Origin: a virus
Length of the DNA: 64,000 nt
Strand: one strand, 5' to 3'
Virus record (IMG/VR): IMGVR_UViG_3300005836_000015
Below are positions 10,917-38,443 of the stretch, piece after piece. The position numbers were made by a program, and so were the translations under genes. Positions within the stretch are counted from its first letter, which is position 1, and every line of letters starts with the position of its first letter. The notes under the pieces are model-generated. The model had not been told where the DNA came from, did no database searches, and worked only from the letters and a program-made list of their open reading frames with translations.

Positions 10917-11086
10917 GATCGAGTATCCATCCGAACAGATCATACACGCAATTGTCGGTTCGAATCCGACCTCCCCCTCCGGAGCCTCGGCTCCTCAAGT
11001 TTGGGGGAGTAGCCTAACTGGAAAAGGCAACGGCCAGCAAAGCCGTCTCGCAAGAGACCCTGCTCTGTCCCCTCGGATACTTGATC
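10917..11086 (+). ncRNA. Y-RNA-like element with circularly permuted tRNA body
   Basis: Terminal helix GTATCC/GGATAC, CCGA/TCGG, ACAGA/TCTGT plus TACACGCA; then T arm and 3' acceptor strand CTCCCCC precede 5' strand GGGGGAG, D arm and anticodon arm (loop CAGCAAA). Confidence 0.75.
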
Positions 11087-11717: not shown

Positions 11718-11791
11718 GGGCCCGTAGCTCAGTGGTTGAGCATCTCCCTGACGCGGAGAAGGTGAAGGTTCGATTCCTTCCGGGCCTACCA
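11718..11791 (+). tRNA. tRNA-Val(GAC)
   Basis: TCTCC-CT-GAC-GC-GGAGA, CCA. Confidence 0.92.
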
Positions 11792-11831
11792 TCCGAAAAA
11801 GTTCGGATCCCTAACTCGATCGCCCTCGGTT

Positions 11832-11839
11832 CCGGTGTA
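11832..11839 (+). promoter_or_regulatory. candidate phage promoter motif CCGGTGTA
   Basis: Upstream of the vWA/ubiquitin-like operon. Confidence 0.55.
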
Positions 11840-11872
11840 CTTCTCTGGAGCCAACCGCGATTGCGGAGGAAA

Positions 11873-13744
11873 ATGAAGATGGACCGTGAAAACCTGGGAC
11901 CGGCGGAGCGCATCATCCAGACGCTCCTCGCTTACTCCGACCACATGTACCACAACCGGCCGGGCATCGTGACCCAGGCCCCGGGCTCCGTCACGGGGGT
12001 CCTCTGGCAGCCGGCCGTCCGCAAGACCGAGAAGGTCGACGGGGCCGACAAGAACCACATCTACCAGCTCGCCAAGCAGGGGAAGAAGACGACGAAGACG
12101 CTCGTCGGAAGCCTCTGGCAGGACGGGACGGTTCGGACGGACGACCGCCGTAAGGTGGCCGAGTTCCGTGAGCCTGGCATCTTCCCCGAGGTTGCCTCCT
12201 GGTGCTACCAGCAGGTCGCCGAGGTCTGGAAGCTCGACAACGAGTTCGCAGCCCGCTGGGCGTCCTACGCCTTCGGGGACAAGTCGACGAGCCGGGACAT
12301 GAAGGTCGTTCTCGCGGCGTTCATGCTCTGCCAGTCTCGTCGGGGTGACCCGGTGAAGGAGAACGGCCAGGTGCTCTTCCTCGACGACGACTTCCGGAAC
12401 GTCGGGGAGGCGATGACGCTGCTTCCTGGTGGCTTCGACCTGAAGCTCCTGCTCCGGATCCGTGAGGTTCTGGAGCTCGAGACGGTGGCCAAGATCAACC
12501 GGGAGCTCGGCTTCGGCCGGTCGGCTCGGAAGGCTCACCTCGGTCGTTGGCCGGTCGTTGCGGCCAAGTGGCTGCGGTATCGGGAGCAGAACCCGAAGGT
12601 TCTCGACGGGCTCCTGAAGTCCGGGTTCCGCAAGTCGGTCATCAAGCTCTGCAAGGCGATCGGCTACAAGCCCACGACTCCGGAGGTCTTCCGGAAGCTC
12701 CGCTGGCAGCAGGCTCAGGCGGCCGATGGTCGTCGGGGCATCGCCATCGGAGAGAAGGTCGAGGCCGGGGAGACCTGGATCGGCCTGAAGGAGGAGCAGG
12801 TCTGCGAACGCATCCTCCGGGACAAGCCGACCTTCAAGCAGATCGTCGGCAAGCTCCCGGAAGGGCTCACGCGGGCCATCGTGGCGGCAGCCATCGAGGC
12901 TGGATCCTTCTCGGACAAGGACCTCATCATCTTCACGCCGACGCTCGAGGAACTGGGCCTGCTCAAGGTCCAGGACGTTCGGGAGCGGTGGGAGAAGGCG
13001 GTCCGGTCGGCCGAGGACCAGCGGGCGGCGAACATCGCCCGCAACGTCCAGTCGAAGGAGACGAAGGAGAAGCTCCAGGAGGGCGCCGACACCGCTGTCA
13101 AGGCGGCGGTGGAGGAGGTCATCAAGGGCATCCGGGTCTACTTCATGGTCGACATCTCGGCTTCGATGCAGGGTGCGATCGACGCGGCCAAGAGGTACAT
13201 CGGGAAGTTCCTCAGCGGCTTCCCGCCGGAGCAGATCCACATCTCTGTGTTCAACACGGGAGGCCGTGAGGTGACCCTCAAGCACGCTTCGGCGGCTGGG
13301 GTGGACCAGGCGTTCCGTGGGATCATGGCGGGTGGTGGAACCGACTACGGCGCCGGTGTTCGGGCGCTCCAGCACCACAAGCCGAAGGCAGACGAGGACG
13401 TGCTCTTCATCTTCGTCGGCGACGAGGAGGCGAACCCCTTCGTGGATGCTGTCCGTCTCTCGGGCCTCAACCCGATGGCGTTCGGCTTCCTCAAGGTTCG
13501 GAACTCGCCGAACTACTCGGCCGTCACCACGACGGCGGCTCAGCTCGGCATCCCGTGCTTCATGATCGACGAGAAGACGTTCGAGGACCCCTACGCTATC
13601 CCCAGGACGGTGAGGGCTCTCGTGGCGGCTACCCCCGTCGGCAAGGCGCACGCAGCGGCTCCGGTGGTCCGTGTTTCCCTCGTGGACACGATCATGAAGA
13701 CGGAGCTGCTCAAGAAGCCGGTCTGGGCAGACGCAGCAGCGTGA
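11873..13744 (+). CDS. vWA-domain protein with helical N-terminal domain (TROVE/Ro60-like architecture)
   Basis: C-terminal MIDAS VYFMVDISASMQG...GGGTD...FVGDEE; basic helical N-terminal region; GGAGG RBS before ATG 11873. vWA is firm; TROVE is inference. Confidence 0.75.
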   Translation: MKMDRENLGPAERIIQTLLAYSDHMYHNRPGIVTQAPGSVTGVLWQPAVRKTEKVDGADKNHIYQLAKQGKKTTKTLVGSLWQDGTVRTDDRRKVAEFREPGIFPEVASWCYQQVAEVWKLDNEFAARWASYAFGDKSTSRDMKVVLAAFMLCQSRRGDPVKENGQVLFLDDDFRNVGEAMTLLPGGFDLKLLLRIREVLELETVAKINRELGFGRSARKAHLGRWPVVAAKWLRYREQNPKVLDGLLKSGFRKSVIKLCKAIGYKPTTPEVFRKLRWQQAQAADGRRGIAIGEKVEAGETWIGLKEEQVCERILRDKPTFKQIVGKLPEGLTRAIVAAAIEAGSFSDKDLIIFTPTLEELGLLKVQDVRERWEKAVRSAEDQRAANIARNVQSKETKEKLQEGADTAVKAAVEEVIKGIRVYFMVDISASMQGAIDAAKRYIGKFLSGFPPEQIHISVFNTGGREVTLKHASAAGVDQAFRGIMAGGGTDYGAGVRALQHHKPKADEDVLFIFVGDEEANPFVDAVRLSGLNPMAFGFLKVRNSPNYSAVTTTAAQLGIPCFMIDEKTFEDPYAIPRTVRALVAATPVGKAHAAAPVVRVSLVDTIMKTELLKKPVWADAAA

Positions 13745-13752
13745 GGTGAACC

Positions 13753-14709
13753 ATGGGATGGAGGGATCTTCTTCAGACACAGGATGAGAGGGTGACCTCT
13801 CCTTGGGTCGGAGGAAGGTCCCTCCGCACCCAGGACCGAACGTGGACCATCGAAGGTCGTCTTCCTCAGGAGGTCGGCTGGTACACGTTCAAGCTCAACG
13901 GCCGCAAGGCAAGGGTCGACCGTCCGACGGAGCCCTCTCACGAGACCCTCGGGCACGTCGTGAAGGGCTACCTGGTCGGTGACCGGATCGTCCCGGATGG
14001 TGTTCGGATCGTCCCGAGCATCGCCCAGGTGGCTGGGGCCTCGGAAACGGTCCACCTCATCGAGCCCGGGCTCGATCGCTTCGTCCGTGTTGCGGCAGGT
14101 CGTCCTTTCGAGGAGGGTCCTCTCGTCTACATCGGGCAGGAGTTCCCGCTTGGCCCCGAAGAAGCAGTCCTTCAGGCGTACCTCGATGGGCTTCGTTCCG
14201 TCGGGCATGTTCAGGGGGTTGCTCCGGCCCTCGATGCGGCTTTCCGTATCGAGGTCTGGCAGAAGGTCGAAGCCGAACGTCGACGTCTCGAAGAAGAGCG
14301 TCGTCGTCGAGAGGAAGAAGAGCGCCTGGCTCAGGAAGAGCGTCGGCGTCAGATCGTCGAACGGCTCGGTGATGGCCAGGGTCGAAGGGAGATGGCTCTC
14401 GTCGACTTTGGGGAGGCAGCACGGGCGGCCCTCGCAGTTGGGGGTGCTACTTACCTCGACCATCGTCCTTCGGTTCGGCGGGGTGAGATGACCGTCCGGT
14501 TTCGGCTGGATGGTCGTCGATTCGAGTGCGTCTGTTCGCAGGCCCTTCGAATCATCGACGCCGGCATCTGTCTCACGGCGCACTACGACGACCCGGACTT
14601 CGAGGCGGGAACGAAGGGCGATGAGCTCTTCACGTTGGAGTCTCTCCCGGCGGTCATCCGTCAGGCGCAGGAAGAAGGAAAGCTTGTCGTGTTTCGGCAC
14701 GTCGACTAG
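13753..14709 (+). CDS. putative E2 (UBC-fold)-like protein
   Basis: C-terminal IDAGICL...FTLESLPAVIRQA parallels the E2 G-x-I-C-L active site and following helix; central Glu/Arg coiled coil; operon context. Confidence 0.5.
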   Translation: MGWRDLLQTQDERVTSPWVGGRSLRTQDRTWTIEGRLPQEVGWYTFKLNGRKARVDRPTEPSHETLGHVVKGYLVGDRIVPDGVRIVPSIAQVAGASETVHLIEPGLDRFVRVAAGRPFEEGPLVYIGQEFPLGPEEAVLQAYLDGLRSVGHVQGVAPALDAAFRIEVWQKVEAERRRLEEERRRREEEERLAQEERRRQIVERLGDGQGRREMALVDFGEAARAALAVGGATYLDHRPSVRRGEMTVRFRLDGRRFECVCSQALRIIDAGICLTAHYDDPDFEAGTKGDELFTLESLPAVIRQAQEEGKLVVFRHVD

Positions 14710-14717
14710 AGGAAACC

Positions 14718-14891
14718 ATGAAGGCGCAGGACAAGGACGAGACCTACCAGGGCATCGGCCGGAAGCGTCGGCGCCTCATGGTTCGCCTCTGGAAGGAAAG
14801 TGGAACGACCCTGAGCCTCAAGGCTTGGGCGAAGATGGCGGAGATCGGCGAGGTCGGCCACGTCTGGATCAACGCGAAGCGAGGTCTGTGA
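14718..14891 (+). CDS. small hypothetical protein (57 aa)
   Basis: GAGGA RBS, MKAQDKDE...AKRGL; TGA overlaps next ATG; absent from the ORF track. Confidence 0.55.
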   Translation: MKAQDKDETYQGIGRKRRRLMVRLWKESGTTLSLKAWAKMAEIGEVGHVWINAKRGL

Positions 14892-15262
14892 TGGAAGCCG
14901 GAGTTGTTCTCGATCTACAGGGTCAGCCGATCCACTGGCACCTGCCCCCGGGTCGAACTGCGGGGTCTCTTCCCGAGAGTCCCGACCTCTGGGATGTATT
15001 CTGGGGGAATCGGGACAATCTTTCGGGATTTGCTCACAGCCATCCCGGATCCGGTGTACCTGGTCCATCGTACACGGATGTCACGACGTTCGCCGCTGTC
15101 GAAGCGGGCCTCGGAGCTCGTCTCGACTGGTGGATCACGAGCAGCGATTCGGTTGCCCTCTTCCGTTGGAAGGGGCCCGATCGCCTGAGCTACCAACGAG
15201 AACCCTTGGCTTCGGTCCCCGCTTGGGTGACCGAGCTTCGTCGGGTCTCGAACCAGATGTAG
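14891..15262 (+). CDS. JAB/JAMM (MPN+) metallo-isopeptidase
   Basis: N-terminal Glu (MEAG) and AHSHPGSGVPGPSYTD = HxH...SxxD. Confidence 0.85.
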   Translation: MEAGVVLDLQGQPIHWHLPPGRTAGSLPESPDLWDVFWGNRDNLSGFAHSHPGSGVPGPSYTDVTTFAAVEAGLGARLDWWITSSDSVALFRWKGPDRLSYQREPLASVPAWVTELRRVSNQM

Positions 15263-15276
15263 AAAGGAGGCCGATC

Positions 15277-15543
15277 ATGGCCGAGGTCATCAGGGCCGAC
15301 GAGGCCCGTCTCAACATCACGTGGCAGCGCAACAACGGCGACCTCCCCGATCCGGTCTCCTTCGACGCAGCGGACGGGGACATCTTCCAGTGGGCGGCCG
15401 AGGCCGTTCGTGGGGGAGGGGTCCCGGGCATCCCGGCCGACCCTGGCGTCAACTTCCAGGACTTCGTGGTCCGTCGGTTCTCGGCCACGGCCGACAACCC
15501 GGTCAACCGGATCATGATCCACCCGAAGACGCCGTTCGGCTGA
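15277..15543 (+). CDS. ubiquitin-like (beta-grasp) protein with C-terminal Gly
   Basis: 88 aa, AGGAGG RBS, ends RIMIHPKTPFG-stop; lies between JAB and E1 genes. Confidence 0.7.
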   Translation: MAEVIRADEARLNITWQRNNGDLPDPVSFDAADGDIFQWAAEAVRGGGVPGIPADPGVNFQDFVVRRFSATADNPVNRIMIHPKTPFG

Positions 15544-15556
15544 ACTGGAGGTCACG

Positions 15557-16132
15557 ATGAAGACGATCGTCATCGTGGGCGTGGGAGCCCTCGGTTCTCA
15601 CGCCGTCCAGTTCCTCCGCAACGTCGAGGCGACGATCCGTGTGGTCGACTTCGATCGGGTCGAGCAGCGGAACGTCATGGCGCAGTTCCACGGCAAGCCG
15701 AGTGTCGGCAAGGCCAAGGTCCAGAGCCTCCAGCAGGCGATGGACTTCCTCTTCAAGAGGAAGGTCGAAGCGGTCCCTCACAAGCTCGTCGAGAACAACG
15801 CCAAGGAGCTCCTCGGCTCGGCCGATCTCGTGATCGACTGCCTCGACAACGGCGAAGGACGACGGGTCATCCAGAGCTTCGTTCGGAAGGCCAAGGTTCC
15901 GTGCCTGCATGGGGCCCTGGCAGCCGACGGAAGCTTCGGATCGGTCCTCTGGGACGAGCACTTCGTCATCGACGACGTGACCGGCACCGGCAAGACCTGC
16001 GAGGACGGGGAGCACCTCCCCTTCATCGGCATGGTCGCCGTTCTGCTGGCTCAGGCCGCCCAGGAGTTCCTGCTGCATGGTCGCCAGGAGGGCTTCAACG
16101 TCTTCCCGGGCGGCCTGGTGAAAATCGGCTGA
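15557..16132 (+). CDS. ThiF/MoeB/E1-like adenylyltransferase
   Basis: IVGVGALGS, DFDRVEQRN..Q, K.K, DCLDN...R; candidate catalytic Cys in KTCEDG. Confidence 0.92.
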   Translation: MKTIVIVGVGALGSHAVQFLRNVEATIRVVDFDRVEQRNVMAQFHGKPSVGKAKVQSLQQAMDFLFKRKVEAVPHKLVENNAKELLGSADLVIDCLDNGEGRRVIQSFVRKAKVPCLHGALAADGSFGSVLWDEHFVIDDVTGTGKTCEDGEHLPFIGMVAVLLAQAAQEFLLHGRQEGFNVFPGGLVKIG

Positions 16133-16237: not shown

Positions 16238-16379
16238 GGAGGACACTGAGGGTTGGTCCCTCGCCAGTCTCGTAAAACTGGTGCCAAAAGCACAACCCGC
16301 ACCGCGCCCTCGGTTCCCGTAAGGGAGCCATCCGAACGGTTCGTACACGCAACTTGGTTCGAATCCAAGGTCCTCCACC
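16238..16379 (+). ncRNA. tRNA-Tyr(GTA)-like RNA with conserved helix inserted before the T arm
   Basis: GGAGGAC/GTCCTCC acceptor, CCAGT...GTA...ACTGG arm, insert CCGCACCG...CCGAACGGTTCGTACACGCA, CTTGG-TTCGAAT-CCAAG T arm. Confidence 0.75.
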
Positions 16380-16395
16380 GACCGCACCCAACTGA

Positions 16396-16529: not shown

Positions 16530-16666
16530 GCCGGCTATGAGGGACGGTCCCTCACTTCCCTGTCAAGGAAAGCAATCCCCCGCACTGAGCACTCTCCTCT
16601 CCTCGTGGGAGGAAACCGCTGAGTTCGTACACGCACTTTCTGGTTCGACTCCAGAAGCCGGCGCCA
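16530..16666 (+). ncRNA. tRNA-Asp(GTC)-like RNA with conserved helix inserted before the T arm
   Basis: GCCGGCT/AGCCGGC-G-CCA acceptor, CT-GTC-AA loop, insert ending GTTCGTACACGCA. Confidence 0.75.
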
Positions 16667-16667
16667 G

Positions 16668-16789
16668 GGGCATCCAACCGAGCAGTTCGTACACGCAAGT
16701 AGCTCAATGTAGAGCAACGGCCTTGAACGCCGTGGGTTGTGGAGTCAAATCCACCTCGCACAAATCCGCACTGCCACCTCGGATGTCCC
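16668..16789 (+). ncRNA. Y-RNA-like element enclosing tRNA-Ser(TGA)-like arms
   Basis: GGGCATCC/GGATGTCC terminal helix, CCGAGCAGTTCGTACACGCA, D arm, ACGGC-CT-TGA-AC-GCCGT, degenerate T arm. Confidence 0.7.
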
Positions 16790-16798
16790 GAATCTTTT

Positions 16799-16945
16799 GG
16801 CCCGTACGGGGAACGGTACCCCACCTGCCTCATCAGCAGGAGCCGCCGCAAGGCGCTCTTCCCGCACCGTATTCTCGGTCCTCTCACGGGGACCAACCGC
16901 ACGGTTCGTACACGCATAGAAGGTTCGACTCCTTCACGGGCCTCC
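16799..16945 (+). ncRNA. tRNA(CAT)-like RNA with conserved helix inserted before the T arm
   Basis: GGCCCGT/ACGGGCC acceptor, CCTGC-CT-CAT-CA-GCAGG, insert ending CGGTTCGTACACGCA, GAAGG-TTCGACT-CCTTC. Confidence 0.75.
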
Positions 16946-17057: not shown

Positions 17058-17226
17058 GATCGTCATCCATCTGAACAGATCATACACGCAAAATAGTGGG
17101 TTCGACTCCCACCTCCTCCACCGGGTCTTCGGACCTGAAAATGGGGGAGAAGCCCAACGGTAGGGCACCGGTACATGGAAACCGGCTCGAAAGAGCAACT
17201 CTGCTCTGTTTCCTCGGATGACGATC
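17058..17226 (+). ncRNA. Y-RNA-like element with circularly permuted tRNA body
   Basis: GATCGTCATCC/GGATGACGATC terminal helix, AACAGATCATACACGCA, T arm and CTCCTCC before GGGGGAG, D arm and anticodon-like arm. Confidence 0.75.
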
Positions 17227-17346
17227 AATCTTTTCCCCTCGAAGGCTTCCTGGTGGGGACCAAGCGGGCCGGTTTGATCAACCGGAAGCGCACGTAGAGC
17301 GAGTACACACCCTCGCCCTCACCAGAAAGCCTTCGAGGAACATCAC

Positions 17347-20848: not shown

Positions 20849-20977
20849 CGGCATCCAACCGTGCAGACCACACACGCAAAGACAGCTCAAATGGTTGAGC
20901 GTCGGCCTCTCAAGCCGAAGGTTGCTGGTTCGACTCCGGCTCCTTGCACCCAAACTGGTCTGTTCTCTCGGATGCCG
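20849..20977 (+). ncRNA. Y-RNA-like element enclosing a tRNA-Glu(CTC)-like cloverleaf
   Basis: CGGCATCC/GGATGCCG terminal helix, CCGTGCAGACCACACACGCA, D arm, TCGGC-CT-CTC-AA-GCCGA, T arm, then CTGGTCTGTTCTCTCGG. Confidence 0.72.
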
Positions 20978-20984
20978 CGATCAT

Positions 20985-21054
20985 ACGTCCGAGCCAAGGC
21001 GGCAACGTGGCCTCCAAAACCACGGATGAGGGTTCGATTCCTTCCGGGCGTGCC
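20985..21054 (+). tRNA. tRNA-Trp(CCA)
   Basis: CT-CCA-AA loop, short D arm, ACGTCCG/CGGGCGT acceptor. Confidence 0.75.
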
Positions 21055-34402: not shown

Positions 34403-34791
34403 TGCCTCACTCGGTTGCTAGCAAGGCCCATCTCGCTGCGGCGCTTTTGCAGCGCTACCAGCAGCTTCACAACGACGCCGAGAAATCCTCCACCATTTCG
34501 ATGCTGAACGAGGTGTTTCCGAACATCCGGTTCCGGCACCGGAACGAAGAAGGGCTCATGGTTTTCTACCTTCAGGGTGCCACTACCTACAAGAGGCTTC
34601 CGAAGGTAGTGACCCATGTCGCAGGGGTCATTGTCGAGGTTCGGTCCGATGGTCAGGGGGAGGTCCTGAGGGATCGCATCTATGGACCAGGGCTTCTCTT
34701 CGATGCGACCGAGCTCCTGGTCGAGCTTGGCGGTGAAGTTCCTCGGAAATCCCGCTGGGAAATCCTGGGCGCCGAAGAGGACTGGATCTAG
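34402..34791 (+). CDS. hypothetical protein
   Basis: TGATG coupling to upstream gene; 129 aa. Confidence 0.6.
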   Translation: MPHSVASKAHLAAALLQRYQQLHNDAEKSSTISMLNEVFPNIRFRHRNEEGLMVFYLQGATTYKRLPKVVTHVAGVIVEVRSDGQGEVLRDRIYGPGLLFDATELLVELGGEVPRKSRWEILGAEEDWI

Positions 34792-34981
34792 TCGTCGGTC
34801 TGGTGTATGGTGGCTCCTGAGGCATCGCGCCCCCTGGGGCTTGGATCCTCGTAACAGCGAACCGCACCTTCGGGTTTGGGGACGCTGCGGACATCGAACC
34901 CGGAACGCCAACGGTTTGGGGATCTCGTCCGGATCCCGCGCTGACGGCAATCCCCTCGACTGTTTTACGGAGGATCTCACC

Positions 34982-36571
34982 ATGGAGATTCTTGCGCGTT
35001 TCACTCACGAAAACCTCGACCACACCCAGGACAACAAGGTCCACTTCGTCGTCAGCCTGAAGGCGCCGACGCTCGACTGGATGCAGAAGCGGCCGAAGCT
35101 CTGCGTCCTCCCGGTCATCGACCTCTCGGGTTCGATGCAGGGCGACAAGCTCCGGTACGCTCAGGCGAGCATGCTGAAGCTCGTCGACCAGCTCGCCGAC
35201 GGGGATTTCGCCGGTCTGGTTGCATTCGAGAGCCGGGTCCACGTGCTCGTCAAGCCGGGTCCCGTGACGGCCGACCTCAAGGACCGGCTCAAGGCGGCCA
35301 TCAACAAGCTCCACATCATGGGCGGGACGAACTTCGCCGAAGGCATGATGAAGGCGGTCAAGGAGGTTCAGCAGCTCGACTTGCCGAACGCCTTCCTGAA
35401 GCGGGTCATCATGTTCACGGATGGTCAGCCGACCGAGGGCGTGACCGACTCGAAGGTCATCCTCAAGATGCTCGACTCCAACCGGGGGAGCGTGACCGTC
35501 AGCTCCTTCGGCTATGGGGACCCGGCCGGCGGGACCTACAACGGTTGCGATCAGGACTTCCTCCTGAAGTTCTCCGAGCTCGGGAAGGGCAACTACGCCT
35601 ACGTCAAGAACCCCGACGATGCCCTGGCGGCGTTCGGCAAGGAGCTCGGCGGGCTCCTGAGCACCTACGCCACGGACCTCGAGATCGAGGTCGAACCGGT
35701 CAACGGGCACATCCTCGAGAAGCTCGTCTCGAACGTCGAGCACACGAAGGACGACACCGTAGGGACTTTCGAGGTCCCCTTCTCGGACATCCTCTGCGAA
35801 GAGACCCGTCACTTCGTCTTCGAGACGAAGCTCTCGAAGCAGCACAAGGTGTTCCCTCGGGAGACGACGGCCTTCAACGTCAAGCTCACCTACTCGGTCC
35901 TCACGGAAGACGGGAAGAAGGAGGCCAAGACGTTGGAGGAGAAGGCCCGGGTTCGGTTCGTCCGCCCGGCGGATGCCCAGAAGGAGCCGAACGCCGAGGT
36001 GATGGAGATCGTGAACCTCCACCGGGTGATCCGGGCTCAGCTCGAGGCCGAGGAGAAGGCGAAGAAGGGCCGGTATGAGGAAGCCGCCGCCCACATGAAC
36101 GACATCGCCGAAGAGGTCAAGACGAGCGGCGGGGTCCGGGGACGGAGGCTCGCTGCCGCAGCCATGAACGTCAGCCACCGGCTCGGCGATGCACACGTCT
36201 ACGCCAACAGCCAGGGCTATCTCCGGAGCTTCGCAGCCGGCGGGACTCGGGGCTACGGAGCGTCCGCCATGGACGAGGAAGCTGGGGCCGACCTCTTGGC
36301 TTGCAACGTCTCGCTCAGCAACAGCAGCCAGGAAGCCTACACGAGCGTCTTCACGGGCAGTGAGAACCTGAACATCGTGACCCACCAGCCGAGCCTCGTG
36401 GACCTCGTTCGACCGAGCTTGGCGGTTCCTCCGGCAGCCTCGAACCTGGTCCTCGAGCCCGGGGCCCTCAACGCTCTCTGGGGGGAGGCGGCTGCTCAAC
36501 AGACTCCGGCCTCGCCGGAAATCTCTCCCATCTCTTGGGTGGGAGGAAACGAAACGAACAAGTCAGGCTGA
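34982..36571 (+). CDS. vWA domain protein
   Basis: VIDLSGSMQG.K, GGTNF..G, IMFTDGQPT, GKGNYAYV; GGAGG RBS. Confidence 0.92.
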   Translation: MEILARFTHENLDHTQDNKVHFVVSLKAPTLDWMQKRPKLCVLPVIDLSGSMQGDKLRYAQASMLKLVDQLADGDFAGLVAFESRVHVLVKPGPVTADLKDRLKAAINKLHIMGGTNFAEGMMKAVKEVQQLDLPNAFLKRVIMFTDGQPTEGVTDSKVILKMLDSNRGSVTVSSFGYGDPAGGTYNGCDQDFLLKFSELGKGNYAYVKNPDDALAAFGKELGGLLSTYATDLEIEVEPVNGHILEKLVSNVEHTKDDTVGTFEVPFSDILCEETRHFVFETKLSKQHKVFPRETTAFNVKLTYSVLTEDGKKEAKTLEEKARVRFVRPADAQKEPNAEVMEIVNLHRVIRAQLEAEEKAKKGRYEEAAAHMNDIAEEVKTSGGVRGRRLAAAAMNVSHRLGDAHVYANSQGYLRSFAAGGTRGYGASAMDEEAGADLLACNVSLSNSSQEAYTSVFTGSENLNIVTHQPSLVDLVRPSLAVPPAASNLVLEPGALNALWGEAAAQQTPASPEISPISWVGGNETNKSG

Positions 36572-36639: not shown

Positions 36640-36725
36640 GGAGGGTGCCGCCCGTTGGTGGGCAGCGAGCTTTGAACACTCGTGGGCACCGAAAGGTGTG
36701 GGGTTCGACTCCTCCGCCCTCCGCC
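36640..36725 (+). tRNA. tRNA-Ser(TGA)
   Basis: CGAG-C-TT-TGA-AC-A-CTCG, long variable arm, G73. Confidence 0.9.
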
Positions 36726-36741
36726 GGTGTATCGGATCCCC

Positions 36742-37032
36742 ATGTCTGGGGACATCCGCTTCGCCAACATCAGCATCGTCAGCATCTCGGATGATCTGAT
36801 CGCCCGGGTTGCTCGTCGGACAAGACGGTCCATCGATGAGGTTCGTGCCTACCTCAAGACGGACCAGCAGGATGACGAGCTCCTTCGGGCGTTCTTGTTC
36901 TTTGGGGTCGGACCCAGGAACAAGCGGTTCACCAGGACCGAAATCGAGGTGCTGTTGGCCGACGAGTCTGGGCGCGAGCCCCTCGGCTACAGGATCTTCA
37001 CAAATCGCAAGGACTTCGAGAGCAACAGGTAA
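36742..37032 (+). CDS. hypothetical protein
   Basis: 96 aa; CCGGTGTA at 36724. Confidence 0.55.
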   Translation: MSGDIRFANISIVSISDDLIARVARRTRRSIDEVRAYLKTDQQDDELLRAFLFFGVGPRNKRFTRTEIEVLLADESGREPLGYRIFTNRKDFESNR

Positions 37033-37036
37033 CGTC

Positions 37037-38443
37037 ATGTCCCTCAAGTACGCTGCGTCGAAGGTCGAAGAAGGTCACTACGTCCTGCCGAAGGTCGGGA
37101 CGATGAAGGTCGAGGCTCACGCCTTCCTCTCGGACGAGCTGTACGCCTCTTCCGAGGAGAACTTCTGGGATCAGCTCTCCAACGGGGCGAGTTACGAGGG
37201 CATCATCGGCGCCTATGCCATGCCCGATTGCCACGTCGGGTTCGGTGTCCCGGTCGGGGTCGTCCTGGTGACCGAAGACACGATCATCCAGGCGGGGAGC
37301 GGCTACGACATCTCCTGCGGGGTGATCTACATGAAGGTCCCGGGTCTGACGGCGACAGGAATCAAGAGCTGGTACAAGCGTGAGACCTGGGTCCGTGAGG
37401 TCGAGAAGCGGATCGCTACGGGAATGGGCTCGGAACGGCCGAGCCTCATGCCGAAGTTCAAGTCCGGGCAGGCCGACGAGATCCTTCGCCATGGGGCCAA
37501 GGCCCTCGGCGTTTCGGCCGACCTTTGCGAGCGCCAGTACATCCCGGTGCCCGAGGGCATGGATTTCAAGAAAATCGACAAGGCATACGACAAGGTGATC
37601 CCGCAGCTCGGCTCGGTCGGCGGGGGCAACCACTTCGTCGAGATGCAGGTCGACGAGAAGACCGGTGAGGTCTACGTCATGGTCCACTGCGGCAGCCGAG
37701 GCTACGGCTGGCAGACGGCGAACCACTTCTTCTTCGAAGGGGCGAAACTCCGGGGACTCCCGTCGAACCGCCGGGAAGACTCCTGGCTCCGGATCGACGA
37801 GCCTCTCGGAAAGGAGTACTGGGCCTACCACAACTCCGCTGCGAACTTCGCCGTCGCCAACCGCCACATCATCGTTCGCGGCATCCAAGAGGCCCTGGAA
37901 AAGGTTTTCAGCGTTCAGGGCGAGGTCTACTACGAGATCAGCCACAATCTCGTCCAGGAGGAAACGCTGGTCCTTCCAGATGGGACATCCAAGAAGGGCT
38001 TCGTCCACCGGAAGGGAGCGACGAGGGCCTTCCCGGCGGGGCATCCCGACCTCAAGGGGACCGTCTGGGAGAAGACCGGGCATCCGTGTCTCATCCCGGG
38101 GTCGATGTACCACGGGGCGGCCATCCTCTTCGCCGGAGAGAATGCCTACAAGTCCGCCTGCTCGGTCAACCACGGGTCGGGTCGGATCATGGCTCGGGGT
38201 GCCGCCAAGAAGAAGCTGGGCCACAAGCAGGCCGAGATCGACGGCGAGATGAAGGAGGTCCAGCGTGAGCTGGGCGGCGTTCGGGTCGATGGCATCGTGG
38301 GCAACCACAAGCACACGCCCCTCGACGAGTGCGCTCATGTCTACAAGGACCTGGACGAGGTGCTCGGTGTACTGGAGTCGACGGGCATTGCCCGGGTGGC
38401 CCATCGCCTCTGGCCCGTGGCCAACCTGAAGGGAACCGAATGA
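37037..38443 (+). CDS. rtcB: RNA ligase RtcB
   Basis: MPDCHVGFGVPVG, GYDISCG, GSVGGGNHFVE, HCGSRG, HRKGAT, IPGSM, HGSGR. Confidence 0.96.
   Translation: MSLKYAASKVEEGHYVLPKVGTMKVEAHAFLSDELYASSEENFWDQLSNGASYEGIIGAYAMPDCHVGFGVPVGVVLVTEDTIIQAGSGYDISCGVIYMKVPGLTATGIKSWYKRETWVREVEKRIATGMGSERPSLMPKFKSGQADEILRHGAKALGVSADLCERQYIPVPEGMDFKKIDKAYDKVIPQLGSVGGGNHFVEMQVDEKTGEVYVMVHCGSRGYGWQTANHFFFEGAKLRGLPSNRREDSWLRIDEPLGKEYWAYHNSAANFAVANRHIIVRGIQEALEKVFSVQGEVYYEISHNLVQEETLVLPDGTSKKGFVHRKGATRAFPAGHPDLKGTVWEKTGHPCLIPGSMYHGAAILFAGENAYKSACSVNHGSGRIMARGAAKKKLGHKQAEIDGEMKEVQRELGGVRVDGIVGNHKHTPLDECAHVYKDLDEVLGVLESTGIARVAHRLWPVANLKGTE

Follow-up and report, generated by a model that had tools for sequence, protein, structure and literature searches.

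A family of predicted Ro60-like proteins encoded with tRNA-shaped RNAs and a ubiquitin-like cassette in huge phages and Myxococcota

A stretch of viral DNA of 64,000 nucleotides (IMG/VR record IMGVR_UViG_3300005836_000015, hereafter the window) contains, at 11873..13744 on the + strand, a gene for a protein with a predicted Ro60-like fold, and this gene is the first of five that are collinear on one strand, in the order Ro60-like protein, orphan protein p318, JAB/JAMM metallopeptidase, candidate ubiquitin-like protein (Ubl), and E1-like adenylating enzyme. Seven tRNA-shaped RNAs are encoded in the same window, and a preliminary description of the DNA had proposed that a Ro60-like protein connects such RNAs to the Ubl genes. 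The stop-free open reading frame (ORF) of the Ro60-like gene has 623 aa; because the spacing of a Shine-Dalgarno sequence (GGAGG, 11864-11868) suits the second ATG better and the gene call in a public protein cluster uses that same start, translation more likely begins at ATG 11879 (621 aa) than at 11873. A stop-free antisense frame of 664 aa (11786-13780, - strand) spans the entire gene; most likely it is no gene of its own but a shadow ORF of high-GC DNA.

Residues 31-99 of the protein (11963..12169, +) form a predicted beta-rich, basic insert (strands assigned by DSSP; predicted local distance difference test [pLDDT] >90; isoelectric point [pI] 10.1), which is mostly missing from relatives at 22-25% identity. 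Residues 100-418 (12170..13126, +; pI 9.2) form an alpha-solenoid domain whose fold is predicted to be TROVE/Ro60-like. The vWA domain behind it (13127..13642, +; pI 6.5) has an intact metal ion-dependent adhesion site (MIDAS; D427, S429, S431, T490, D517), and the five residues are the same in all 55 relatives compared, the most distant at 21% identity. The protein had been described earlier as a basic helical N-terminal region joined to a MIDAS-bearing vWA domain; its basic pI and invariant MIDAS agree with that description, but residues 31-99 are predicted to be beta-rich and not helical. A conserved C-terminal tail (13643..13744, +; L613, K615, P616, and W618 conserved) has two short helices, predicted by AlphaFold2 at 603-609 and 617-622 beyond a low-confidence linker; in Ro60, a helix after the vWA domain returns to the ring (PMC12135203). 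The single domain found by Pfam is the vWA (VWA_2, residues 422-514), whereas residues 1-420 have no match in PHROGs, PADLOC, NCBIfam, or PDB sequences, and phmmer of the protein against PDB sequences returned only noise. The family itself is large: a word-index search found 1542 proteins at E <=0.001, the best 120 of the 1542 being 59-100% identical over their full length, with homologues on contigs up to 441 kb, and an exhaustive search at 50% clustering gave 312 cluster representatives, among which full-length relatives reach as low as 22-25% identity.

An AlphaFold2 model built from a 55-sequence alignment (pLDDT 87.9, predicted template modelling score 0.77) places a HEAT-like alpha-solenoid ring in the N-terminal domain, with the MIDAS-bearing vWA domain directly after it, in the same position as in Ro60. 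When the full-length model was compared with the PDB using Foldseek, Ro60/TROVE entries ranked first over 480-570 aligned columns (9kop, 1yvp, 1yvr, 9nfa, 9l5y, 2i91, 2nvo, and 9nen; E 4e-7 to 1e-4), and all of the top matches spanning at least ~500 columns were Ro60/TROVE. Clusters named Ro or TROVE in the AlphaFold Database (AFDB) were also among the full-model matches. A second structural comparison of the whole model was flooded by vWA domains, and the N-domain was therefore folded alone; the only solved folds covering most of it are three Ro60 structures, 9l5y included.

The gene for p318 (13753..14709, +) begins 9 nt after the stop of the Ro60-like gene and encodes 318 aa, comprising an N-domain, a charged coiled coil, and a C-domain with an invariant Cys273 in the motif 'DAGICL'. 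No match to an E2 or to another known family was found for it in Pfam, PDB profiles, PADLOC, or Atlas, and a Pfam scan of 30 p318 homologues returned only low-complexity noise. An acidic, Trp-containing tail (e.g., DDDDWDD) forms the C-terminus of ~40% of the p318 homologues, some of them only 20% identical, and could bind the MIDAS site or some other partner. A poorly conserved 57-aa ORF (14718..14891, +), present in 7 loci only, precedes the 123-aa JAB/JAMM metallopeptidase (14891..15262, +; weak Pfam Prok-JAB match), in which the JAMM residues E29, H49-x-H51, S60, and D63 are conserved; the HxH...SxxD motif is found in 54 of 54 homologues. The 88-aa Ubl candidate (15277..15543, +) ends in ...RPKTPFG-stop, and this C-terminus is conserved, with 0-6 residues beyond the Gly in homologues, as would be expected of a precursor that the JAB peptidase trims. 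An Atlas search with the Ubl candidate found only unnamed viral clusters, and PHROGs, PADLOC, and NCBIfam contained nothing for p318, JAB, or Ubl. The last gene (15557..16132, +) encodes a minimal ThiF/E1-like adenylating enzyme of 191 aa (Pfam ThiF, 1.5e-25) that also matches PADLOC E1-E2 and NCBIfam ThiF/MoeB/UbaA models; its GxGxxG motif, D31, C95, and C148 are conserved among 50 homologues.

These five genes stay together over long evolutionary distances. Using tblastn on 68 viral loci, we found p318 in 63, JAB in 62, Ubl in 60, and E1 in 59, in the same order and on the same strand, and nearly all viral loci without a downstream gene end before its position. Neither insertions of up to several kb between the genes nor divergence to identities of 31-66% disrupts the order; in a pair at 31% identity (L063/L064) it is kept with Ubl undetected, and in relatives of the Ro60-like protein at 22-25% identity a p318 homologue adjoins (hhalign probability 97-98%), followed in one case by ThiF. 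Across ~90 related loci, nearly all keep the cassette order, down to 22-31% identity, and we regard this collinear cassette as ancient. A complex prediction for the Ro60-like protein with p318 and Mg (score 0.19, mark 0.32) gave no verdict either way.

Seven copies of the sequence YACACGCA followed by a T arm or a D arm occur in the window (10943, 16344, 16628, 16690, 16909, 17083, and 20871), each within a two-part helix composed of P1 (~7 bp), an internal loop with CUC on one side, and P2 (6-9 bp), and the RNAs share a YACA(C/A)GCAA tail. The helix has three settings: a tetraloop-closed insert in the variable arm, open ends around a tRNA-like body, or open ends around a permuted body, in which the order is T arm, closed acceptor stem, D arm. 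All seven RNAs are on the + strand. The first (10921..11086), recognised by its motif at 10943 and its minimum free energy fold, has the YrlA-type order of closing helix, T arm, closed acceptor stem, D arm, and anticodon-like arm. It ends 787 nt upstream of the Ro60-like gene; a further five RNAs lie between 16238 and 17232, the first of them starting 106 nt after the E1 stop (16132), in good agreement with the one RNA about 800 nt upstream and five about 100 nt after the operon that had been described before. In 16238..16384, the helix module (16298-16353) is a giant variable-arm insert of a tRNA-shaped RNA (covariance model R2, 44.4 bits, and fold); the modules at 16581..16637 (R2, 32.1 bits, E 9e-4) and 16863..16918 (R2, 46.5 bits) belong to a second and a third insert-type RNA. 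At 16664..16800 a tRNA-like body is enclosed by a helix of leader and trailer (Rfam tRNA, 43.9 bits at 16693-16762, and fold), whereas 17060..17232 is a second RNA of YrlA-type order (weak Rfam YrlA match at 17094-17166, and fold). The seventh RNA, at 20850..20985, has a tRNA-Glu-like body inside the helix (motif and fold). The YrlA arrangement described by Chen et al. (PMC4201824), with its 5'/3' stem, (V), T arm, closed acceptor-like stem, and D arm, is found in 10921-11086 and 17060-17232 only. Between a tRNA-Val gene and the start of the Ro60-like gene there is also a 7-bp hairpin, CCATCCGAAAAAGTTCGGATC (11789-11810), which repeats the CCAUCCGAA strand of the RNA helix and could serve either as a terminator or, as a binding site, in self-regulation.

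A covariance model seeded on an ungapped alignment of six hairpins and rebuilt once found 108 copies of the helix across 55 loci, 106 of them on the cassette strand; covariation is seen at each of the 13 pairs and pairing in 93.7% of cells, in an alignment that was itself fitted to the model. In 43 of the 55 loci, an RNA match on the cassette strand is no more than 2 kb away from the cassette, either downstream of the E1 stop (34 loci, typically at 100-700 nt) or upstream of the Ro60-like start (9 loci). In the other 12 loci the covariance model found no copy, and at least four of these end at or before the E1 stop. The RNA follows E1 even where insertions shift E1 by several kb, and it lies beside the cassette also in loci without an ordinary tRNA gene (L006, L019). 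The exact pattern YACACGCA...GTTCRANTC matched an RNA in only one of five complete genomes, because other lineages have YACAAGCA; this form of the tail motif is found in many lineages (L019 at 15330-15560; L006, L012, L033, and L028), where insert-type members look like complete tRNAs, with an acceptor stem, an anticodon arm, sometimes an encoded CCA, and a ~70-nt insert in the variable arm. Insert-type RNAs are missed by tRNA finders.

The cassette is not confined to phages, being present in both huge phages and Myxococcota. Twenty-five loci come from species-representative genomes, mostly contigs of metagenome-assembled genomes (MAGs) of Myxococcota, and most of those with enough downstream DNA have the cassette; in one MAG subclade (L075, L078, L079, L082, L089, L095, and L097) the JAB gene is missing between p318 and Ubl. 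The isolate Paraliomyxa miuraensis SMH-27-4 carries all five genes (L092, 10001-14262) on a 799-kb scaffold, among genes for Ser/Thr kinases, YcaO, halogenases, and P450, with a YhgA-like transposase just downstream and no phage genes near the cassette; elsewhere its genome encodes two ordinary TROVE-positive proteins. A single helix-enclosed tRNA-like RNA starts 36 nt after E1 on this chromosome, with a 9-bp closing helix and the CAUACAAGC motif; it lacks a CCA, and its acceptor stem is degenerate. A related MAG retains an RNA of this type in which the anticodon is different and the remainder is kept.

As the relatives of the Ro60-like protein sit on IMG/VR contigs of 200-620 kb, several of which have terminal repeats and an estimated completeness of 100%, the window is by this comparison part of a huge-phage genome. 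Sequencing runs listed as containing it were wetland metagenome DNA runs, each with a small share, and none was an RNA run. Its G+C content is ~62%, and it contains 46 tRNA genes, nearly all on the + strand, a tmRNA gene, and genes for EF-Tu, RtcB, a chaperonin, ribonucleotide reductase, DNA ligase, a RecD-like helicase, and RecA homologues. The RtcB RNA ligase is at 36809-38443 (Pfam, 2e-84); upstream of it are a tRNA-Ser gene (36640-36725) and a second vWA protein (34682-36571, 629 aa, vWA at aa 145-305), which was considered as a paralogue of the Ro60-like protein and ruled out on comparison, the two being unrelated. RtcB is encoded in four of five related complete genomes and never adjoins the cassette. 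Among deposited phage records, the sole relative of the window is the metagenomic 'Virus Rctr197k' (KX853510), in which the Ro60-like gene (L071, 6998-8947) is entered as a misc_feature, 'similar to conserved hypothetical protein', without a coding sequence; an array of tRNA genes, 31 of them annotated, directly precedes it, and ~7 kb downstream there is a ThiF-like gene.

By analogy with known Ro60 systems, we consider it probable that these genes encode a Ro60-class ribonucleoprotein (RNP), in which a ring protein binds helix-bearing RNAs, coupled to a Ubl cassette. Ro60 genes, including those of phages, have Y RNA genes within 4 kb on the same strand (PMC4201824, PMC12135203), and in 43 of 55 loci the RNAs described here likewise lie near the cassette (within 2 kb) on its strand. 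The protein would be a basic TROVE-like alpha-solenoid ring followed by the MIDAS vWA domain and a tail that may return to the ring, with the beta-rich basic insert as an addition. As in Rsr/YrlA and phiLo Ro60/Yrl, the basic surface of the ring would bind the helix that the RNAs share (P1 of 7 bp, internal loop, P2 of 6 bp), and the tRNA-like bodies would serve as handles or decoys for tRNA-recognising factors of the host or the phage. The MIDAS face of the vWA domain, together with p318, would connect the RNP to the Ubl module, in which E1 would activate the C-terminal Gly of the Ubl and the JAMM enzyme would trim the Ubl precursor or take the tag off; the tag itself might be put on the RNP or on a protein captured by it. 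The conserved MIDAS and catalytic motifs, the five-gene synteny, and the structure and location of the RNAs are observations, and the fold class is a property of the predicted model; RNA binding by the ring, its physical coupling to the Ubl enzymes, and the target of tagging are what we infer from the analogy.

Several results weigh against this reading. On the protein side, TM-scores by target to the Ro60 entries are 0.27-0.48 in Foldseek, i.e., below 0.5; Foldseek with the N-domain only found nothing significant, with 9l5y_B alone at high probability (E 0.11); and alpha-solenoids can reach middling Z-scores by arrangement alone. Pfam TROVE (PF05731) and vWA_Ro60 had no match in the Ro60-like protein at E up to 0.1, in 10 distant relatives at E up to 0.01, or in all frames of 5 complete related genomes at E up to 10, in a scan in which control genomes gave the expected matches. 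The family profile, compared with PDB sequences, matched Ro60 through the vWA domain only (9nen, E 1.7e-4, at the equivalent position), and a TROVE-domain entry reached only E 0.07 (residues 303-438). Full-length hhalign to a Pfam-TROVE-positive Paraliomyxa protein gave a probability of 94.9% over 372 collinear columns, but we did not accept this match as support for the helical domain, since the N-domain profile by itself failed to align (probability 1%); the vWA domain carries the alignment, and a second TROVE-positive protein aligned over its vWA domain only. The N-terminal domain is TROVE-like by predicted structure, then, and not by sequence, and the modelled protein is very probably a highly divergent branch within the Ro60 architectural class; the Ro60-like architecture proposed in the preliminary description is supported by the Foldseek ranking of Ro60 as first match to the predicted model, and not by Pfam membership in TROVE/vWA_Ro60.

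On the RNA side, the best match to Rfam YrlA (RF02553) is 25.6 bits against a threshold of 69 (E 0.053, model positions 29-81). The motif GNCGAAN0-1G/CGAA is not conserved, CGAA being present in 2 of 7 window copies with a loop that varies across lineages, and the five RNAs other than the two of YrlA-type order are whole tRNA-like bodies with the helix as insert or as leader and trailer. The RNAs resemble YrlA in layout and are not YrlA members; of the seven, only two have its order of arms. Nor is the link between RNA and cassette exclusive: in a complete 436-kb genome (G004, the record of L019), five helix modules at 99255-100089 are 230 kb from the operon, with one further RNA copy beside the operon. 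In a 619-kb record the first RNA model found none, and the rebuilt model found one copy 213 nt after E1. As to whether RNA motif and operon occur together, which had been suggested as a check, they do so in 43 of 55 loci and in the chromosomal myxobacterial copy. Since the predicted N-terminal fold is not other than TROVE-like and RNA and operon are not independent of each other, the idea of a link between a Ro60-like protein, Y-like RNAs, and Ubl genes survives. That such an RNP might recruit E1/E2 to damaged tRNAs or ribosomes, as was also proposed, is purely speculative.

A more specific version of this idea, which we offer tentatively and would not expect to hold, is that the Ro60-type RNP is the RNA-guided arm of Ubl conjugation. 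Through the tRNA-shaped RNAs held in the ring, a target would be chosen or detected, for example an enzyme that binds tRNA, a factor associated with the ribosome, or a defence nuclease that cleaves tRNA, and the Cys protein, E1, and JAMM would tag or untag that target or the RNP. Huge phages and their myxobacterial hosts would then share a system in which protein tagging is directed by a non-coding RNA.

Alternatively, the protein may be a protein-binding vWA/MIDAS adaptor of the Ubl cassette, that is, a substrate receptor or E3-like scaffold comparable to Rpn10, RGLG, TFIIH p44, or vWA-MoxR proteins, with a generic solenoid and with RNAs that lie nearby only through the tRNA-rich location. 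The tightest and most universal linkage is indeed with p318, JAB, Ubl, and E1 and not with RNA; 12 of the 55 loci have no RNA match, a TROVE sequence signal is absent from the Pfam and profile tests, the Foldseek matches also include the vWA domains of Rpn10, RGLG1, and Rea1-MIDAS/UBL, and vWA proteins coupled to Ubl conjugation are known from bacterial conflict systems (PMC7159879). We nevertheless consider this account unlikely: among solved folds, the three Ro60 structures alone match most of the N-domain, which is strongly basic, the RNA lies within a few hundred nt of E1 even without a tRNA array and in the chromosomal copy, and at least 4 of the 12 RNA-negative loci simply end at or before the E1 stop.

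Because five of the seven RNAs are complete tRNA-like bodies, they may also be unusual tRNAs or their precursors and not Y RNAs; with a giant variable arm, a permuted order, or a paired leader and trailer, they would be folded, checked, or processed by the Ro60-like ring as a chaperone, together with the phage RtcB. Consistent with this, insert-type RNAs have complete acceptor stems together with anticodon arms, and in some cases CCA is encoded (L019; window 16238-16384), two members are permuted, the window and 4 of 5 related complete genomes encode RtcB, and Ro60 is a known binder of misfolded non-coding RNAs. However, a homologue of the splicing endonuclease (PF01974) was not found in 5 related genomes, the helix does not form a bulge-helix-bulge motif, the chromosomal RNA lacks a CCA, its acceptor stem is degenerate, and its anticodon differs between two close relatives that keep the rest, and RtcB is unlinked to the cassette, which makes precursor processing improbable, and a shade more so than an adaptor role. 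A sulfur-carrier relay of the Urm1-Uba4, TtuB-TtuC, or SAMP-UbaA type, in which Ubl and E1 would thiolate phage tRNAs or tRNA-like RNAs held by the Ro60-like scaffold with the Cys protein as sulfur acceptor, would suit an E1 closest to ThiF/MoeB/UbaA adenylyltransferases, a Ubl ending in Gly, adjoining tRNA genes, the invariant Cys of p318, and the precedent of E2-less Ubl systems with a JAMM peptidase (PMC4443979, PMC7527816), but is very improbable for a cassette of only five conserved genes that has no PP-loop thiouridine synthetase, rhodanese, or cysteine desulfurase. The dispensability of JAB in one subclade favours neither conjugation nor a sulfur relay.

Ro60 and Y RNAs are conserved from bacteria to humans, and their core function is debated. 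The known bacterial partners of Ro60 are exoribonucleases and RNA repair enzymes, while the human Ro autoantigen pairs Ro60 with the E3 ligase Ro52/TRIM21, a pairing that is unexplained. The preferred reading, a Ro60-class RNP coupled to a Ubl cassette, adds to these a Ro60-shaped family that is invisible to sequence libraries and whose near-constant partners are a Ubl, an E1, a peptidase (missing in one subclade), and an orphan Cys protein. Should this RNP cooperate with the enzymes of tagging, non-coding RNA would be linked to protein tagging in prokaryotes and phages, in a manner that would recall the pairing of Ro60 with Ro52/TRIM21 in humans. A widespread 'hypothetical protein' of huge-phage annotation thereby gains an assignment, one that points to an undescribed RNA-protein machine common to huge phages and myxobacteria, and the cultured myxobacterium Paraliomyxa miuraensis, which has the cassette, makes genetic testing possible.

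Compared with known systems, the coupling of the Ro60/Y RNA theme to Ubl genes appears new, whereas phage Ro60 with Y-like RNAs is already known, from mycobacteriophages and from Thermus phage phiLo (PMC4201824, PMC12135203); TROVE proteins have also been noted in a few jumbo phages (PMC7824862). In the searchable literature we found no description of a TROVE-like protein coupled to a Ubl/E1/JAMM set, nor of this protein family. Cellular Ro60/Rsr proteins and their Y RNAs (Xenopus Ro60, 1YVP; Deinococcus Rsr, 2NVO; Salmonella Rsr with YrlA/YrlB) are the best and the sole extended structural matches of the window protein, sharing a helical ring followed by a MIDAS vWA domain, and they share same-strand genes for structured RNAs within a few kb, two of the window RNAs being ordered like YrlA. 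Unlike them, the window protein has no TROVE/vWA_Ro60 sequence signature and has gained a beta-rich insert of ~70 residues; its RNAs, unlike Y RNAs, have no conserved GNCGAA/CGAA, fall below the YrlA threshold, and take several topologies; and its linkage is to a Ubl/E1/JAMM set and not to RtcB/RtcA or polynucleotide phosphorylase. The Ro60 of Thermus phage phiLo with Yrl1/Yrl2 (9L5Y) and that of mycobacteriophages with YrlA-like RNAs resemble the window system in having a phage-encoded ring and adjacent genes for Y-like RNAs; 9l5y is among the three top fold matches, with equivalent Ca/Mg-binding MIDAS residues (PMC12135203). These phage proteins, however, are recognisable TROVE members without a Ubl cassette, whereas the window family is found only in huge phages (200-620 kb contigs) and Myxococcota, with p318 and nearly always Ubl and E1.

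Two further groups of systems resemble the Ubl side of the cassette. The vWA-MoxR 'FtsH ternary' systems (Kaur, Burroughs, Iyer, and Aravind 2020, PMC7159879) likewise couple a vWA protein to JAB, E1, and Ubl genes and occur in bacteria with complex development, myxobacteria included, but they have MoxR and FtsH ATPases, a RING E3, a Ubl-E2 fusion, and effector domains, all absent from the window cassette, and they have no TROVE-like domain or RNA genes. E2-less or minimal prokaryotic Ubl systems (SAMP/UbaA/HvJAMM1; TtuB/TtuC; Bil and CBASS Cap2/Cap3) share a ThiF-type E1, a JAMM enzyme, and a small protein ending in Gly; the window E1, by contrast, has only 191 aa, with no fused E2 or rhodanese and no recognisable UBC-type E2 in the cassette, whose constant partners are instead a Ro60-like protein and an orphan Cys protein.

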